A stretch of 64,000 bases of DNA from an uncultured Croceitalea sp. (GTDB lineage: Bacteria; Bacteroidota; Bacteroidia; Flavobacteriales; Flavobacteriaceae): the NCBI RefSeq assembly GCF_947499565.1, contig NZ_CANMOV010000006.1; one strand, written 5' to 3'. Both the position numbers and the translations under genes were made by a program. The stretch's first letter is position 1; the number at the start of each line of letters is the position of its first letter. Below are positions 18,097 through 49,103 of this stretch, one piece after another. A model generated the notes under the pieces. That model was not told the DNA's origin. It did no database searches and was given only the letters and a program-made list of their open reading frames with translations.

Positions 18097-18208
18097 GGGA
18101 TTTCTCAATCGTCGCCGAGCCTGTCCTTAGCAAAGTCGAAGGGCTCCTCATGTCGAAATGACTAAAAAAGAACACGATTTTCATTTCTAAGTGAATATGA
18201 GAAATCCC
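18097..18208. repeat. Orphan family A REP doublet (same unit as those flanking the GIY-YIG gene at 25.4 kb)
   Basis: Perfect 11-bp terminal inverted repeat GGGATTTCTCA...TGAGAAATCCC; the left half nearly matches 25259-25325. Confidence 0.88.
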
Positions 18209-25108: not shown

Positions 25109-25376
25109 GGATTTCTCAATCGTTGCCGAGCCTGTCCTGAGCGCAGTTGAAGGGCAACTCATGTCGAAATGACTAAAACAGAACTCACAGTCATTTCGAA
25201 CCGAATACAATGAGTGTGAGAAATCTAAAAACTTAACCTAAACACTCTTATTGGTCTTGGATTTCTCAATCGTCGCCGAGCCTGTCCTGAGCGTAGTCGA
25301 AGGGCTCCTCATGTCGAAATGACTAAAATAGAACCCAATGTCATTTCGAACCGAATGTAATGAGCGTGAGAAATCT
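25109..25376. repeat. Two family A REP doublets (118 bp each, 150-bp period) downstream of GIY-YIG-1
   Basis: 25109-25226 and 25259-25376: GGATTTCTCA...TCGAAATGAC-16 nt-GTCATTTCGA...TGAGAAATCT. Confidence 0.92.
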
Positions 25377-25674
25377 AAATGACGTCGTTATTTAAAAATT
25401 CCCACTCTGGATTAAAAGAAGAAATCAAGTTATCCTTTTTCTCTCTTCTCCATTTTTTCAATTCCTTTTCTCTAAGAATTGCTGACTCTATGGATTCAAA
25501 ACCTTCATAGTAGACAAGATGATAACAGTTGTATTTGCCGGCAAATGATTTTCTAGCATTTTGACTATCAAAATAATGTTGGGAAAGTCTTCGCTGGATA
25601 TCGTTTGTTACGCCAATATAAAGTGTGGTTTTGTTTTCATTAGTTACTATGTAGACAAAGTAGTTAGATAACAT
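25375..25674 (-). CDS. Small stand-alone GIY-YIG nuclease (GIY-YIG_unchar_3-like), copy 1
   Basis: FVY...LYIGVTND..RRL.QH, REKELKKWRREKK, FNPEW; catalytic Y/R/E/N appear intact; the TAG stop overlaps the repeat end. Confidence 0.92.
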   Translation of the reverse strand: MLSNYFVYIVTNENKTTLYIGVTNDIQRRLSQHYFDSQNARKSFAGKYNCYHLVYYEGFESIESAILREKELKKWRREKKDNLISSFNPEWEFLNNDVI

Positions 25675-25694: not shown

Positions 25695-25813
25695 AGATTT
25701 CTCAATCGTTGCCGAGCCTGTCCTGGGACGCAGTTGAAGAGCAACTCATGTCGAAATGACTAAAATGGAACCCGCAGTCATTTCGAACCGAATACTAGGA
25801 GCGTGAGAAATCT
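25695..25813. repeat. Family A REP doublet upstream of GIY-YIG-1
   Basis: AGATTTCTCA...TCGAAATGAC...GTCATTTCGA...TGAGAAATCT, 119 bp. Confidence 0.92.
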
Positions 25814-25857
25814 AAAAAATTAAACTAATCACTATCTTAGTCCAAAGCATTAAAATC

Positions 25858-44246: not shown

Positions 44247-44999
44247 CTAATTATATCTTTTCAAGGTTTCTTTGGTAAAATCACTTAAAACTAAGGTTCC
44301 ACTAATGACAGCACGTTCCATAAGTAAAGTATCCCAATCCTCTGTACCTTTCCAAAACATCGCTTTCATTTTAGACATTGCTTCTGGATTGTAGGTACAT
44401 AAGTTTTTAGCAAATGCCAATACCTCTTTATCTAAAGTTGCTGTATCCTCAAAAACTTTAGTAAAAAGCCCCTTATCTCTTGCCCATTCTGCTGGGTAAA
44501 ATGAGTTGGCATCAATAGCAATTTGAGACATTCCACTTAGTCCCAGTTTCCTTTCAACCGCTGGCCCTACTACAAAGGGGCCAATACCAATATTTAACTC
44601 GCTCAATTTTATAGCAGCAAATTTTGTTGCCATGCAATAATCTGTTGCAGAGGCTAATCCAACACCACCACCAACAGTTTTTCCTTGCACTCTACCGATA
44701 ATAAATTTTGGACACTTTCGCATCGCATTAATAACATTAGCAAAGCCTGAAAAAAAGGTTTTACCTGTTTCTGCATCATTAATCGCAACAAGTTCTTTAA
44801 AGCTGGCTCCTGCGCAAAAAGTCCTGTCTCCGCCGCTTTTTAAAACGATTACTTTTATAGCATCATCTTTTCCAGCATTCGTAATTGTTTGCGCTAATTC
44901 TGCCAGAATATCCCCTGGAAGTGAATTATGGGCTGGATGAAAAAATTCTATAAATCCTATCTGTTCCTCAACAGTTAATGTAACATAAGGTGCTGTCAT
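44247..44999 (-). CDS. Enoyl-CoA hydratase/isomerase (possibly the PaaF-equivalent)
   Basis: FCAGASF and GGGVGLASATD crotonase motifs; ATG at 44999. Confidence 0.85.
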   Translation of the reverse strand: MTAPYVTLTVEEQIGFIEFFHPAHNSLPGDILAELAQTITNAGKDDAIKVIVLKSGGDRTFCAGASFKELVAINDAETGKTFFSGFANVINAMRKCPKFIIGRVQGKTVGGGVGLASATDYCMATKFAAIKLSELNIGIGPFVVGPAVERKLGLSGMSQIAIDANSFYPAEWARDKGLFTKVFEDTATLDKEVLAFAKNLCTYNPEAMSKMKAMFWKGTEDWDTLLMERAVISGTLVLSDFTKETLKRYN

Positions 45000-45008
45000 C
45001 ACGCTTTT

Positions 45009-45032
45009 GTGTTCCCGAGTAATCGGGAATCT
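45009..45032 (+). repeat. Family F REP hairpin downstream of GIY-YIG-2
   Basis: GTG-TTCCCGA-gtaa-TCGGGAA-TCT. Confidence 0.8.
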
Positions 45033-45044
45033 ATTTTAAGATTA

Positions 45045-45332
45045 TTATTTCAAAATTTCATATAAATCCGTCCAATCGGGATTCGTTTTTTCTATTAATT
45101 CAATTTTCCAAGCCCTGTTCCATTTCTTCATTTGTTTCTCTTTCAATCTAGCTTCTCCTTCTGTTTTAAATTGTTCAAAGTAAACTACTTTATCCAAATT
45201 ATACCTCGCCGAGAATGTTGTTGGATGAGCTTTAGTTTTATGTTGATATATTCTTGTTTTTAATCTTTTAGTTTTTCCGATATATAGAACACCCCGCTTT
45301 TTATTTGTAATTATGTAAACATAGTGTTTCAA
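45045..45332 (-). CDS. Small stand-alone GIY-YIG nuclease (GIY-YIG_unchar_3-like), copy 2
   Basis: YVY...LYIGKT..LKTRIYQH, KEKQMKKWNRAWKIELIEKTNPDW; TTG start; inserted inside the paa cluster. Confidence 0.92.
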   Translation of the reverse strand: MKHYVYIITNKKRGVLYIGKTKRLKTRIYQHKTKAHPTTFSARYNLDKVVYFEQFKTEGEARLKEKQMKKWNRAWKIELIEKTNPDWTDLYEILK

Positions 45333-45354
45333 AATTTCAATTCTTATTTTAAAC

Positions 45355-45378
45355 GGCTCCCGATGACTCGGGAGTCAC
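45355..45378 (-). repeat. Family F REP hairpin upstream of GIY-YIG-2, inverted relative to 45009
   Basis: The minus strand reads GTGA-CTCCCGA-gtca-TCGGGAG-CC. Confidence 0.8.
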
Positions 45379-45396
45379 CTTGAACAATTCAGTTTG

Positions 45397-47895
45397 TTAT
45401 AGCAAATTGAATTGTTCAAAATGATGATTTAAATGCTTTCGCTCCAATAGCGCCCATTCATATCTATTTAAGAATCCAAAGACAGGGTTTTTTGTTCTTT
45501 CTTCTGGATTTGCATTAAAAAATTCTAAATATTGCTCTCTAGCCTCTAACATCCTTTCTTTTGCTATAGTCAAATTCTCATGCTTGGGGTTATTTATATC
45601 TGATTTTTCAGCTAGGGGAAAATCATAATCATGCGGCATCTTATCATAATTATATAAGGTAGCGTGCACTTTTTCTATAATTTTCTCTGGTGTAGAAATT
45701 TTAAAATCTTGAATTTCTCCTGAAGCAATTCGATAACTATATTCCAAGTGTTCTACCAAGCATTGCGCACTAATATTCCCCCATGTAGGTGTAGTTTTTT
45801 CATCAAGTTTAGCAAAACACTCCTTAATTTTAGTTTCGGTCATTTCTACAAAAGTTTCTTGTTTCTTTTGAACCATGGTGAGGATTGTTGCAATAGCAAC
45901 CAACTCATCTTCTGTGTCAAAAACCTCAACAAACCATTTTACGATACCGCTTGGATGTTCTGCTCCCGCAACATCTCGATCTACTTTTTGCTTACAGGTT
46001 AGTCTTACATAAATGGTATCGTTATGGTAAAGCGGTCTTAGGAAACGACACTCTTCTAAGCCATAGTTTGCAGCAACCGGTCCTTTATTTGGATAAACAA
46101 ATAATCCCGCCGCAGCTGAAATGATAAAATATCCATGCGCGGTACGCTTTTCAAATATGCTCCCATCTAAGGACGTTATATCGGTATGAGCATAAAAATG
46201 GTCCCATGTAACATTTGCAAAGTTGATGATGTCGGTATCGGTCAACGTACGTTTATGTGTTTTTAAGGACATTCCTGCTTCAATATCTTCCCAATGATAT
46301 TTGAACGGGTGTTGTGCCGCTTCTTTATATTTTGCATTGGCCTGATATATTCCGGTAATCTCCGTTAAAGTTGTTGGGGTTCCTTGGATAGCTGTACGTT
46401 GCAAATAATGTTTTATACCACGCATACCACCCATTTCTTCTCCTCCTCCTGCTCTACCTGGGCCTCCATGGACTAGATTAGGCAATGGAGAACCATGTCC
46501 TGTACTTTCCTTGGCGTTTTCTCTATTTAAAACCAAAATACGGCCATGATGACTTGCTGCATTTACTACATATTCCTTAGCAATCTTATCATCAAAAGTG
46601 GTGATTGACGACACTAAAGAACCTTTACCCATTTGTGCCAAAGTAATAGCCTCACCCAAATTCTTATAAGGCATAATGGTACTAACAGGACCAAAAGCTT
46701 CACGCTCGTGGATAATTGTATTCTGAAAAGGATGGTCCGCCCGTAATAAAATTGGGCTAATAAATGCTCCTTTTTTAGCGTCTGCTCCAATAGTTTCAAT
46801 CTTATCTAAATCACCGTAAACTATTTCTGCTTCTTTTGCTAAATCGTTTACAGAATCTCGTACCGCCTGTACCTGTTGTTGACTTACCAAAGAACCCATT
46901 CTTACTTCTTTTAATCTTGGATCTCCAATAGTTACTTTGTCCAATGCCTTTCCAAGAGCAATCTGCACATCCTCAACAAGATTTTCAGGAACTATAATTC
47001 GTCTTATAGCTGTACATTTTTGTCCGGCTTTCACCGTCATCTCCTTTCGCACTTCCTTTACGAACAAATCAAATTCGGGAGTCCCAGGAACTGCATCTTG
47101 TCCTAAAATAGAAGCATTTAAAGAATCTGCTTCCATAGTAAAAGGCACTGCTTCTTCAATCAAACGCGGATGTGCTTTTAACAAACGTCCTGTTGTTGCA
47201 GAACCAGTAAATGTTACCACATCTTGCGATGTTACCGTATCGAGTATCGTTTTAACCGTTCCATTAATAATCTGTAAAGCACCTTCTGGTAAAATGCCTG
47301 AATTTATTATTTCTCTAGCTACTGCTTCTGCTAAATACGAAGAAGACGGTGCAGGTAACACCACAGCTGGCATTCCTGCCATCCAATTGACAGCACATTT
47401 CTCTAACATACCCCAAACAGGAAAGTTAAAGGCGTTAATATGGACAGCTACTCCTTTTTTAGGTACCATAATGTGATGTGCCATAAATCTGCCTCCCCTA
47501 GATAAATCTATAGGGTCTCCTTCCACATGAAACGGTTGATTTGGAAACAGCTTACGCAAAGATGCATTGGCAAAAAGATTACCAAAACCACCTTCTATAT
47601 CAATCCAACTATCTACTCTGGTAGCTCCAGTCCTGTAACTTAAGTCATAAAATGCTTCCTTTCTTTTATTTAAGTAAAGTGCTAGTTTCTTAAGCATATT
47701 ACCTCTTTCTTGGAAAGTCATTTTGCGAAGAACAGCTCCTCCTTTATTTCTTCCATATTCTAAGGTTTCCGGAATATCTAAACCTTCAATAGCGATACTG
47801 GTAAAAGCTTCTCCTGTTACGGCATCAAGAACTGGTGTTCCTTCTTCTTTACCTTCTACCCATTGCCCTTTTATATAATGTGGTACTTTTTTCAT
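45397..47895 (-). CDS. paaZ: PaaZ (ALDH plus MaoC hydratase) with an extra C-terminal DinB/DUF1569-like domain
   Basis: [30 protein letters not shown] and RTAHGYF motifs; extension [13 protein letters not shown]...HLNHHFEQF; ATG 47895. Confidence 0.93.
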
Positions 47896-47897
47896 AA

Positions 47898-49103
47898 TCA
47901 CACTCTTTCTATAATCGCAGCATAGCCTTGTCCTACACCTATGCACATTGTAACTAAAGCGTACTTTTTTTGTTGTTCATGTAATTCCAAAGCGGCGGAA
48001 TATGCAATTCTAGCACCCGTTACACCTAAAGGATGACCTATAGCTACAGAACCGCCATTTGGATTCAATCTCGGGTCATTATCCGCCAATCCCCATGCCC
48101 GAGTACAAGCCAATGCTTGGGCAGCAAATGCTTCGTTCAATTCTATGACATCCATATCTTCCATGGTCAATCCAGCTTTTGCCAATGCCTTATTAGAGGC
48201 TTCAACAGGACCAATACCCATTATCCTTGGTTCCACACCTACCACTGCAGAACTTACTATTCTTGCCAAGGGTTTAAGATTGTATTTTTTAATGGCATCT
48301 TCAGATGCTATAATGGTTGCCGCAGCGCCATCATTTAATCCAGAAGAATTTCCTGCAGTTACACTACCTCCTTCTTTTTTAAATGCTGGACGCAGTTTTG
48401 CTAAAATCGCTTTTGTTGTTGTTGGTTTTACAAATTCATCTTTAGAAAATAGGATAGGATCTTTTTTACGCTGTGGAATTTCAACAGTGACAATCTCCTT
48501 AGCCAAACGCCCATTTTCTTGAGCTTTAGTAGCTTTCATTTGACTCCAATATGCAAATGCGTCTTGGTCTTCTCGAGAGATGTTATATTTTTCTACTAAA
48601 TTTTCGGCAGTATTTCCCATACCGTCTGTTCCGTAGAGTTTTTGCATTTTAGGGTTGATAAAACGCCATCCAAAGGTAGAATCGTACATTTTGGAATCTC
48701 CACCAAATCCCGTAGATGGTTTTGCAATAACATAAGGGCCTCTAGTCATATTCTCTACTCCACCGGCTATAAAAACATCTCCGTCACCGGCCTTAATAGC
48801 TCGGTTTGCATGAATCATAGCAGATAAGCCCGAACTGCATAATCGGTTCACAGTTTCTCCAGGAACTGTAAAGGGTAATCCAGCTAAAAGTGATGCCATA
48901 CGCCCTACATTGCGGTTATCTTCACCTGCCTGGTTTGCGCAACCCATAATTACATCATCATAAGCTTCTTTAGGAATATTTGGATTACGAGCTACTACCT
49001 CTTTAATTACCAATGCTCCCAAATCATCCGTTCTTACAGCAGACAAGGTTCCTTTATAGTTGCCTATTGGTGTTCTAATACCGTCTATTATATATGCTTC
49101 CAT
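47898..49103 (-). CDS. pcaF: 3-oxoadipyl-CoA / 3-oxo-5,6-dehydrosuberyl-CoA thiolase (PcaF/PaaJ)
   Basis: NRLCSSG, GNSSGLNDGA, ELNEAFA, AIGHPLG and CIGVGQG motifs. Confidence 0.92.
   Translation of the reverse strand: MEAYIIDGIRTPIGNYKGTLSAVRTDDLGALVIKEVVARNPNIPKEAYDDVIMGCANQAGEDNRNVGRMASLLAGLPFTVPGETVNRLCSSGLSAMIHANRAIKAGDGDVFIAGGVENMTRGPYVIAKPSTGFGGDSKMYDSTFGWRFINPKMQKLYGTDGMGNTAENLVEKYNISREDQDAFAYWSQMKATKAQENGRLAKEIVTVEIPQRKKDPILFSKDEFVKPTTTKAILAKLRPAFKKEGGSVTAGNSSGLNDGAAATIIASEDAIKKYNLKPLARIVSSAVVGVEPRIMGIGPVEASNKALAKAGLTMEDMDVIELNEAFAAQALACTRAWGLADNDPRLNPNGGSVAIGHPLGVTGARIAYSAALELHEQQKKYALVTMCIGVGQGYAAIIERV

Follow-up and report, generated by a model that had tools for sequence, protein, structure and literature searches.

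In a phenylacetate-degradation (paa) operon of the window (the whole stretch of DNA analysed, 64,000 nucleotides from an uncultured Croceitalea sp.), the interval between a paaZ-like gene and the enoyl-CoA hydratase/isomerase gene that follows it very probably holds an Ssn-family cassette, in which a small gene with predicted nuclease activity is inserted, between two hairpins, after the paaZ stop codon and ahead of the hydratase start codon. From the comparison of related genomes we propose, with good confidence, that the cassette is a selfish-looking module tied to the paaZ-hydratase junction, which appears to decay there into gene-less hairpin doublets. The family is a known one, published in 2025 (PMC11893778), and the window cassette belongs to it with a variant hairpin prefix. 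A 17-bp stem formed between the paaZ 3′ end and the left end of the cassette is apparently previously unreported. The components of the locus are listed below.

44247-45002, minus strand: enoyl-CoA hydratase/isomerase gene, the downstream flank (Pfam ECH_1, 1.2e-33)
45009-45032, plus strand: downstream hairpin, SRM-like, GTG-TTCCCGA-gtaa-TCGGGAA-TCT, read antisense to the genes
45045-45332, minus strand: ssn-like gene for a predicted 95-aa single-domain GIY-YIG nuclease, TTG start
45355-45378, minus strand: upstream hairpin, SRM-like, GTGA-CTCCCGA-gtca-TCGGGAG-CC, read on the ssn sense strand
45375-45424, no strand: long palindrome made of the last ~25 nt of paaZ and an inverted copy on the cassette side
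45397-47946, minus strand: paaZ-like gene for an aldehyde dehydrogenase joined to a MaoC hydratase, the upstream flank (Pfam Aldedh, 4.8e-52; MaoC, 1.7e-19)

Both flanking hairpins have a 7-bp stem and a 4-nt loop, with the cores TTCCCGA-gtaa-TCGGGAA (45012-45029, plus strand) and CTCCCGA-gtca-TCGGGAG (45374-45357, minus strand). They are inverted copies of each other (94% over 16 nt according to the repeat finder), and the 3′ tails of both, in motif orientation, are directed at the ssn gene, as the first-pass annotation had described. The downstream hairpin lies 12 nt past the ssn stop, 6 nt ahead of a GTG and 9 nt ahead of an ATG of the hydratase gene, while 22 nt separate the end of the upstream hairpin from the ssn start codon. 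The sequence TCCCGA-N4-TCGGGA has exactly two copies in the 3,886,555-bp genome, both flanking the ssn ORF and 345 bp apart; because the core occurs only at these two places genome-wide, chance is excluded for the hairpin pair. The DNA fold of the downstream hairpin has an energy of -8.2 kcal/mol (z -4.1), and the ssDNA fold of the stem-plus-hairpin region at 45375-45424 one of -21.8 kcal/mol (z -7.1). Compared with the empty site, the insert measures 394 nt from stop to start, or ~420 nt including the replaced paaZ tail. The cassette extends beyond 45009-45378, with the palindrome that contains the paaZ stop codon (45375-45424) as part of the unit. A compact mobile unit of ~370 bp had been suggested previously; an inserted unit is indeed absent from a same-genus relative (see below), its size is ~420 bp with the left palindrome included, and its movement is what we infer from the distribution. 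No target-site duplication and no second copy of the cassette were found.

The ssn product matches Pfam GIY-YIG (PF01541, E 1.7e-16, residues 2-77), and the only Pfam matches of the 95-aa protein are GIY-YIG and the related T5orf172; the same search revealed no HUH/Y1 tyrosine transposase domain in it. The protein is 40% identical to the product of the window's second small GIY-YIG gene (25375-25674), so that its earlier description as a divergent 95-aa GIY-YIG paralogue between the hydratase gene and paaZ is borne out by sequence and Pfam alike. The AlphaFold2 model (pLDDT 95.8) is a single compact, bare GIY-YIG fold, and the protein stops at residue 95, with only a short helix following the catalytic domain and no C-terminal DNA-binding domain. 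By fold, the nearest solved structures are UPF0213 (1ZG2), Slx1 (6SEH), and UvrC-N, with a sequence identity of 22-26% to UPF0213/YhbQ and Slx1. The fold search of the PDB returned only generic GIY-YIG domains and no solved Ssn, the PDB sequence search gave no match at E≤0.01, and the NCBIfam search gave only sub-threshold UvrC or intron-endonuclease matches. Across 52 homologues, Y6, Y17, and E65 are conserved at 98-100% together with R27 and H31; the wider set of Y6, Y17, G19, T21, R27, H31, and E65 is conserved at 94-100% in 40-52 homologues, and N84 is also conserved. The orthologues have their start codon (ATG, TTG, or GTG) at the same position as the window ORF. The dN/dS among ssn orthologues is ~0.1, with dS near saturation, and the gene is thus under purifying selection.

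The Ssn family consists of ~94-aa GIY-YIG-only proteins (CDD cd10448) (PMC11893778). For SsnA of Neisseria meningitidis to bind, its hairpin must be folded ssDNA, and the cut falls a few nt upstream; mutation of Y6, Y17, or E64 abolishes cutting, and the characterised members leave dsDNA uncut (PMC11893778). Ssn hairpins (NTS/SRM) flank their own genes, on both sides in 42% of the homologues, and four homologues each cut ssDNA beside their own hairpin, a cognate specificity established by biochemistry (PMC11893778). The NTS, CGTCATTCCCGCGMAVGCGGGAATCYRG, contains the Neisseria dRS3 core (PMC11893778), and this published connection accounts for the resemblance to dRS3-type repeats remarked on in the first-pass annotation. 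In Neisseria, SsnA lowers transformation by NTS-bearing DNA (PMC11893778). The authors of the family description noted that the hairpin-gene-hairpin arrangement resembles an insertion sequence, without evidence of movement (Chenal et al., Nat Commun 2025, PMC11893778).

We assigned the window locus to this family by proxies, namely its fit to the published description, its catalytic residues, and an NTS-flanked Sphingorhabdus homologue. Tyr6, Tyr17, and Glu65 align with Y6, Y17, and E64 of SsnA. One Sphingorhabdus MAG encodes a homologue 51% identical to the window protein (E 9e-33) and a second ssn gene, 42-44% identical to it, flanked by the exact published NTS; the forward NTS lies upstream of this gene and the reversed NTS downstream, which is the polarity of the window locus. 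The NTS scan placed the exact NTS in many phyla. Searches via the NTS-bearing loci yielded a 91-aa YhbQ-like GIY-YIG gene without NTS flanks, plus UvrC, in Neisseria lactamica and no homologue match in Neisseria mucosa. The published SRM string (HGTCWY...) misses both window hairpins, which have GTG in place of the required GTC, and finds 1 site in the genome against 0-5 expected.

An orthologue search in 300 genera of the same bacterial family identified 12 genomes from 12 genera (the window's included) with a cassette orthologue at 62-100% identity. The ssn gene directly follows paaZ in all 12 and lies between paaZ and the hydratase gene in 11; in the twelfth, G019, an extra gene stands between the cassette and the hydratase gene. 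We compared the paaZ 3′ junction in 104 genera, paaZ itself being patchy (105/301 genera). The junction is tight in 43 genera, with a gap of ≤35 nt and often an overlapping ATGA (one has a solo hairpin). It holds a clade A cassette as in the window in 12 genera, gene-less remnants with the same palindrome and/or hairpins in 5, and cassettes of another Ssn clade (39-44% identical), whose hairpins are of the GTCA-CTGCGCA type, in 7. Other inserts occupy it in 32 genera; many of these are inverted doublets of SRM-like units, and one (L094) retains a decayed ssn C-terminus. No hydratase gene follows paaZ within the fetched stretch in 5 genera. The closest paaZ relative belongs to the same genus, and there paaZ and the hydratase gene overlap (ATGA) and the cassette is absent. 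Aligning this junction across relatives, as had been recommended, thus uncovered genomes lacking the unit, the same-genus sister among them.

The filled and empty junctions are interleaved on the paaZ tree. The window paaZ is sister to the empty same-genus locus with an SH-aLRT of 100, and the 12 cassette loci are so scattered that 12 changes are needed, at least 10 of which are forced by well-supported branches. The AU test rejects a single clade of cassette-bearing paaZ genes (p 8.7e-5; 5e-36 including the remnants). These observations support gain and/or loss of the cassette many times within the bacterial family. Distances between ssn genes correlate with those between paaZ genes (Mantel r 0.50, p 0.008). 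Most nearest neighbours do not coincide, and because the correlation is only moderate, repeated gain and old residence with repeated loss are not separable. Saturated synonymous sites and the partial co-divergence of ssn and paaZ are compatible with long vertical residence and repeated loss. The cassette is accordingly to be seen as an old element that is bound to its locus and does not hop freely, since the same junction is occupied in 12 genera and the divergence partly tracks paaZ.

One pair of genera with very similar paaZ genes, G019 (filled) and G289 (empty), allowed us to look at the left boundary. In windows of 45 nt, the identity between their paaZ genes stays at 0.91-1.0 as far as the palindrome foot; it drops to 0.44 in the last 9 nt of paaZ, and the last 9 nt of the G019 gene resemble other filled loci (0.89). 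The switch in similarity is confined to the last ~25 nt, and no long co-conversion tract was seen in paaZ upstream of the cassette. Furthermore, the paaZ tail ..GLI* occurs in 0 of 17 cassette loci versus 29 of 75 empty and other-insert loci, and the last codons of the window paaZ, ..FEQFNLL*, are of the cassette-associated type. These cassette-specific tails and the terminal similarity switch show that the unit carries a paaZ tail of its own. The hydratase 5′ ends are too variable among loci for placing the right boundary. Gain in G019 is favoured because the empty allele of G289 is also found in the non-sister relative G106. G019 carries a second cassette beyond the hexapeptide gene, and we considered a composite element there, with two cassettes around a cargo; this was rejected, as the extra gene, of the beta-lactamase family, simply follows the cassette.

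All 12 orthologous loci share a common plan. The last codons of paaZ are followed by their inverted copy, forming a stem that includes the stop codon, then by the abutting upstream hairpin, ~25 nt, ssn, ~20 nt, the inverted downstream hairpin, 5-12 nt, and the hydratase ATG. The downstream hairpin is found at every orthologous locus (consensus AGATTCCCGC-tttc-GCGGGAA); conservation of the gene at this position without hairpins, which the first-pass annotation had named as counting against its reading, was not seen. In the window, the end of paaZ with its TAA stop (45397-45399) pairs with the inverted copy, and the stem abuts the upstream hairpin. An alignment of 13 cassette or remnant loci contains the 17-bp stem in 13 of 13, with double compensatory changes at 10 pairs and 97.7% of the cells paired, and the stem is missing from empty junctions. 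The upstream hairpin likewise keeps its 8-bp helix throughout the 13 loci, and 6 of the 8 pairs show double compensatory changes; jointly, stem and hairpin have such changes at 16 of 25 pairs, with 97.2% of the cells paired. None of 500 shuffles attains the observed values on four of five measures (percent paired, pairs with a double change, cells with a double change, and covariation score), the fifth, further pair types, not being elevated (497/500 shuffles). Sliding the pairing partners abolishes the signal. Wobble pairs are rare in the covarying stems, which is only a hint that the constraint may act at the DNA rather than the RNA level. Several roles are conceivable for the paaZ-tail stem: it may set the choice of site, form a cruciform in which the hairpin is exposed, act as an RNA element, or be a leftover of template switching.

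Comparison of hairpin type with protein clade across 52 homologues revealed that the hairpin type tracks the nuclease clade. Clade A has YTCCCGN/YTCCCAC stems with a GNNA-like 4-nt loop, clade B has ATTCCTGC-gaag-GCAGGAAT, and clade C has CTGCGCA or CTGAA stems with a 5-nt cttgt loop. Together with the four cognate enzymes of PMC11893778, this pattern agrees, as far as sequence comparison goes, with the nuclease-repeat specificity put forward in the first-pass annotation. Its statement that each window nuclease has a distinct repeat also holds, as the gene at 25375-25674 is flanked by a different ~120-nt repeat with three or four full copies in the genome. Paralogous cassettes of clade B (50-58% identical) occupy the hydratase-hexapeptide junction and the position after the hexapeptide gene in other genera, and one genome has three ssn genes in a single paa operon. 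Within the window, no hairpin was found at the hexapeptide-E2 junction. In G021, a clade B cassette is flanked by a ~99% identical direct duplication of 190 nt, which comprises the downstream hairpin and the first 156 nt of the next gene and whose joint coincides exactly with the upstream hairpin's 5′ edge. This duplication is a recent rearrangement, located where an Ssn cut is expected.

Beyond the two flanks, the source genome has very few related hairpins. The loose clade A pattern finds 5 sites versus 1 for the control, namely the 2 flanking hairpins, 2 perfect hairpins that stand alone (upstream of rpsP in one case, downstream of a 5S rRNA gene in the other), and 1 site without a clean stem; its counts reach 27-43 in some cassette-bearing relatives. 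No abundant family emerged from a census of perfect GC-rich hairpins in the genome, and the Rfam search of the 64-kb window gave 0 matches at the gathering score. The genome-wide search for hairpin copies that had been suggested thus recovered the core at both flanks and nothing dispersed, and a dispersed repeat family in the source genome was rejected, given only 2 flanking copies and 2 loose solo look-alikes. With so few cognate hairpins and look-alikes, the genome offers the enzyme no population of repeats for action in trans.

By homology with the characterised members, the nuclease would bind each hairpin only in folded single-stranded DNA, recognise the stem along with the TC(T) tail on its 3′ side, and introduce a nick ~8 nt 5′ of the hairpin stem. 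The inward orientation of the two hairpins places the two predicted nicks on different strands, each at one of the cassette's outer borders. The sense-strand nick would be located at the palindrome foot, near 45380-45385, and the antisense-strand nick near 45000-45005, a few nt from the hydratase start codon. The nuclease may also drive the gain of the cassette. GIY-YIG enzymes only hydrolyse DNA. Since such a hydrolytic enzyme cannot rejoin DNA, copying or integration would need host replication or recombination. A further, tentative and rather doubtful proposal is that the Ssn cassette is a transposase-free mobile element whose site is chosen by DNA-DNA pairing, the gene-bearing cassettes of the bacterial family being the autonomous and the gene-less hairpin doublets the non-autonomous forms of a GIY-YIG-driven analogue of RAYT/REPIN. 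According to this proposal, the left end of the cassette would carry a 15-19-nt inverted copy of the 3′ end of the target gene, and this left-end stem, stacking on the nuclease hairpin, would account for the repeated return to the paaZ-hydratase junction.

Another possible, on balance unlikely, explanation is that the cassette has become immobile and has been kept by the host as a resident gene with a local function, such as restricting or shaping the recombination of incoming ssDNA at the accessory paa operon, in the way SsnA acts in Neisseria at genes with NTS flanks, or insulating the two operon genes from each other by a DNA or RNA structure. It shares its enzymology with the Ssn-cassette explanation and differs from it only on current or recent mobility. 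The published role of SsnA in lowering transformation by NTS-bearing DNA (PMC11893778) fits such a function, as do the strong purifying selection on ssn, the same junction filled in 12 genera with partial co-divergence with paaZ, the palindrome and hairpins maintained by compensatory change, the paralogous cassettes in the paa operon (up to three per operon), and the patchiness of paaZ itself. However, 43 of the 104 paaZ-bearing genera have no element at the junction, the nearest relative included, and the decayed remnants and gene-less doublets show frequent loss. The near-identical 190-nt duplication of G021, ending exactly at a hairpin edge, shows recent rearrangement, and the genome offers almost no further cognate sites for a genome-wide role.

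The remaining two explanations are far less probable than a resident function. A classical free-standing GIY-YIG homing endonuclease of the T4 Seg or I-TevI type, which cuts the dsDNA of the empty junction and is copied by double-strand-break repair, would explain the repeated occupation of one precise junction and the non-monophyly on the paaZ tree, and the cassette's own last paaZ codons resemble a short co-conversion tract. We nevertheless give it very little credence: the 95-aa protein is a catalytic domain only, the characterised Ssn members spare dsDNA and recognise a hairpin that the empty site lacks, no foreign tract is seen upstream of the palindrome in G019/G289, and different, unrelated hairpin elements sit at the same junction. 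It is equally hard to credit that the hairpins are ordinary terminators or mRNA-stabilising stem-loops beside a housekeeping UPF0213/YhbQ-like gene. Although the left hairpin followed by CTATTTT scores as terminator-like on the plus strand, this call is antisense to all genes here, and neither hairpin has a sense-strand T tract. A UPF0213 protein is the nearest solved structure; the YhbQ-like gene of Neisseria lactamica has no such hairpins beside it. In the source genome, the core of the hairpins is confined to this locus, as the first-pass annotation had allowed for terminators. Nevertheless, the two hairpins are an inverted pair of one motif, many unrelated sites, other phyla included, have a gene with inverted hairpins whose type tracks the protein clade, and terminators between overlapping genes of one operon would be counter-productive.

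We consider the Ssn-cassette explanation the best account of the locus, and the paaZ junction, which is precisely defined, provides a natural series of states for it: empty, filled, filled by another clade with its hairpins, gene-less doublets, and decayed remnants. Among these are a filled and an empty locus from a single genus, as well as the G019/G289 pair of genera. Such natural close pairs make the mobility of the Ssn cassette, and the part of the nuclease in it, directly testable. A literature search for follow-up work on Ssn mobility found none among the papers covered. Beyond PMC11893778, the present analysis appears to add the series of junction states, the grouping of several cassettes within paa operons, and the covarying paaZ-tail stem, which may bear on site choice. 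In addition, the matched nuclease/hairpin pairs are useful for the ssDNA-cutting tools proposed for the Ssn family.

Among known systems, the window cassette is closest to Ssn/NTS. Like SsnA, the nuclease has ~94-95 aa, a GIY-YIG domain only, and the same catalytic residues, and its gene lies between 20-30-nt hairpins in inverted orientation. The window core TTCCCGN-loop-NCGGGAA-TC is close to the NTS ATTCCCGCG-MAV-GCGGGAATC, and the downstream hairpins of the window orthologues are TTCCCGCGAAAGCGGGAATCT. The window 5′ prefix differs, being GTG(A) rather than CGTCA. The source genome has no dispersed repeats, in contrast to the hundreds in Neisseria, and the window cassette is fixed at one operon junction across genera and possesses the extra long stem with the 3′ end of the target gene.

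The layout also recalls REP/REPIN-RAYT systems, with a single nuclease gene between inverted short palindromic repeats, recognition of ssDNA hairpins (predicted here), gene-less inverted repeat doublets elsewhere, and long persistence with largely vertical inheritance. The likeness ends with the layout, as the enzyme here is a hydrolytic GIY-YIG protein, not an HUH/Y1 transposase, and therefore cannot rejoin DNA; moreover, the repeat copies here number units to tens, not hundreds. With IS200/IS605 (TnpA), the cassette shares subterminal hairpins as element ends, recognised as ssDNA (again predicted here), the lack of a target-site duplication, and the idea of DNA-DNA pairing beside the hairpin to specify the site. 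In contrast, the ends of IS200/IS605 are cut on the same strand, whereas the window hairpins are on opposite strands, and the target pairing of these elements involves 4-5 nt as opposed to 17 bp with the target gene tail here; the catalytic family is also another one.

GIY-YIG homing endonucleases (T4 SegA-G, I-TevI) have the same catalytic fold and are likewise small selfish genes between conserved genes, patchy at one site. They differ in having C-terminal DNA-binding modules and cutting the dsDNA of the empty allele, whereas the window protein has no such module and its presumed recognition element is inside the cassette. Finally, UPF0213/YhbQ and Slx1 share the same minimal GIY-YIG fold, Slx1 being a structure-selective nuclease for branched DNA; unlike the window gene, the YhbQ-like gene examined in Neisseria lactamica has no flanking hairpins.

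Several ssn genes, the small GIY-YIG nuclease genes bracketed by two inverted hairpins, can share one paa operon. At loci L048 (genome G146) and L059 (genome G158), the genes belong to different Ssn clades, each with its own hairpin type. Three are found in G146, in the order paaZ-ssn(C)-hydratase-ssn(B)-hexapeptide-ssn(B), and two within the stretch fetched from G158, in the order paaZ-ssn(C)-hydratase-ssn(B)-hexapeptide. In genome G019, a gene of the beta-lactamase family with TPR (L274, 1291-2814) lies between the hydratase gene and a directly adjoining clade-A cassette, the downstream hairpin of which is degenerate. A clade-B cassette of genome G021 (L024, 1-745) is flanked on both sides by a direct duplication of ~190 nt, ~99% identical, which comprises the downstream hairpin and the initial 156 nt of the adjoining hexapeptide-repeat gene. 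The copy on the upstream side is truncated, its end coinciding precisely with the 5' edge of the hairpin there, and the duplication has the appearance of a recent rearrangement at the predicted Ssn cut site.

Gene-less, solo or decayed forms were identified at the paaZ-hydratase junction in other genera:

L112, L141, L119, L120, L123, L147, L094, L095: junctions with gene-less, solo or decayed forms

Among them are inverted hairpin doublets of 73-150 nt without a gene, a lone hairpin of the downstream type (L095) and a remnant that retains a decayed ssn C-terminus (L094). These forms resemble REPIN-like non-autonomous elements, or else products of cassette deletion.

In the window's own genome, two solo hairpins of the cassette's general type were found outside the window, TTCCCAC-ttcc-GTGGGAA (C2:287618) and TTCCCGC-cttc-GCGGGAA (C19:148), both with a TCTC tail; their places are closely upstream of rpsP and closely downstream of a 5S rRNA gene. 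Within ssn itself, the codons for NPDW, a conserved motif close to the C-terminus (window 45066-45084, - strand, AATCCCGATTGG), are similar to the stem TCCCGA and were reported by the repeat finder as a 68% copy of the cassette hairpin, a likeness that may be coincidence.

The other small GIY-YIG gene of the window is accompanied by a different repeat:

25375-25674, - strand: GIY-YIG gene
25110-25230, 25260-25380, 25696-25816, also 18099-18196: ~120-nt structured repeat, direct orientation around the gene

One copy lies upstream of the gene and two downstream, all in the same direction. Genome-wide, only three full copies, one near-full copy and four partial 40-nt matches were found, and the repeat had no match in Rfam.

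The exact-NTS scan located the Neisseria-type NTS in genomes of many phyla (L154, L155, L160, L161, L211, L223 and others), frequently as convergent doublets spaced by 45-60 nt. An Ssn homologue was detected neither in the searched N. lactamica assembly nor in N. mucosa. The sole small GIY-YIG gene found in the former (L267, 1489-1764) encodes a 91-aa YhbQ-like protein; it overlaps with the gene before it and is not flanked by NTS.

A two-unit element, distinct from the hairpin doublets, recurs at the paaZ-hydratase junction in several genera:

L096, L105, L116, L121, L132, L088, L062: junctions with the two-unit element

It reads GTCATTC.GAGCG..GAAGAATCTC then GAGATTGCCACG..CGCAATGAC, each unit being opened by GTCAT and closed by AATCTC. 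The units are like the SRM, the general family motif of hairpins next to which Ssn enzymes cut, but with a large loop.
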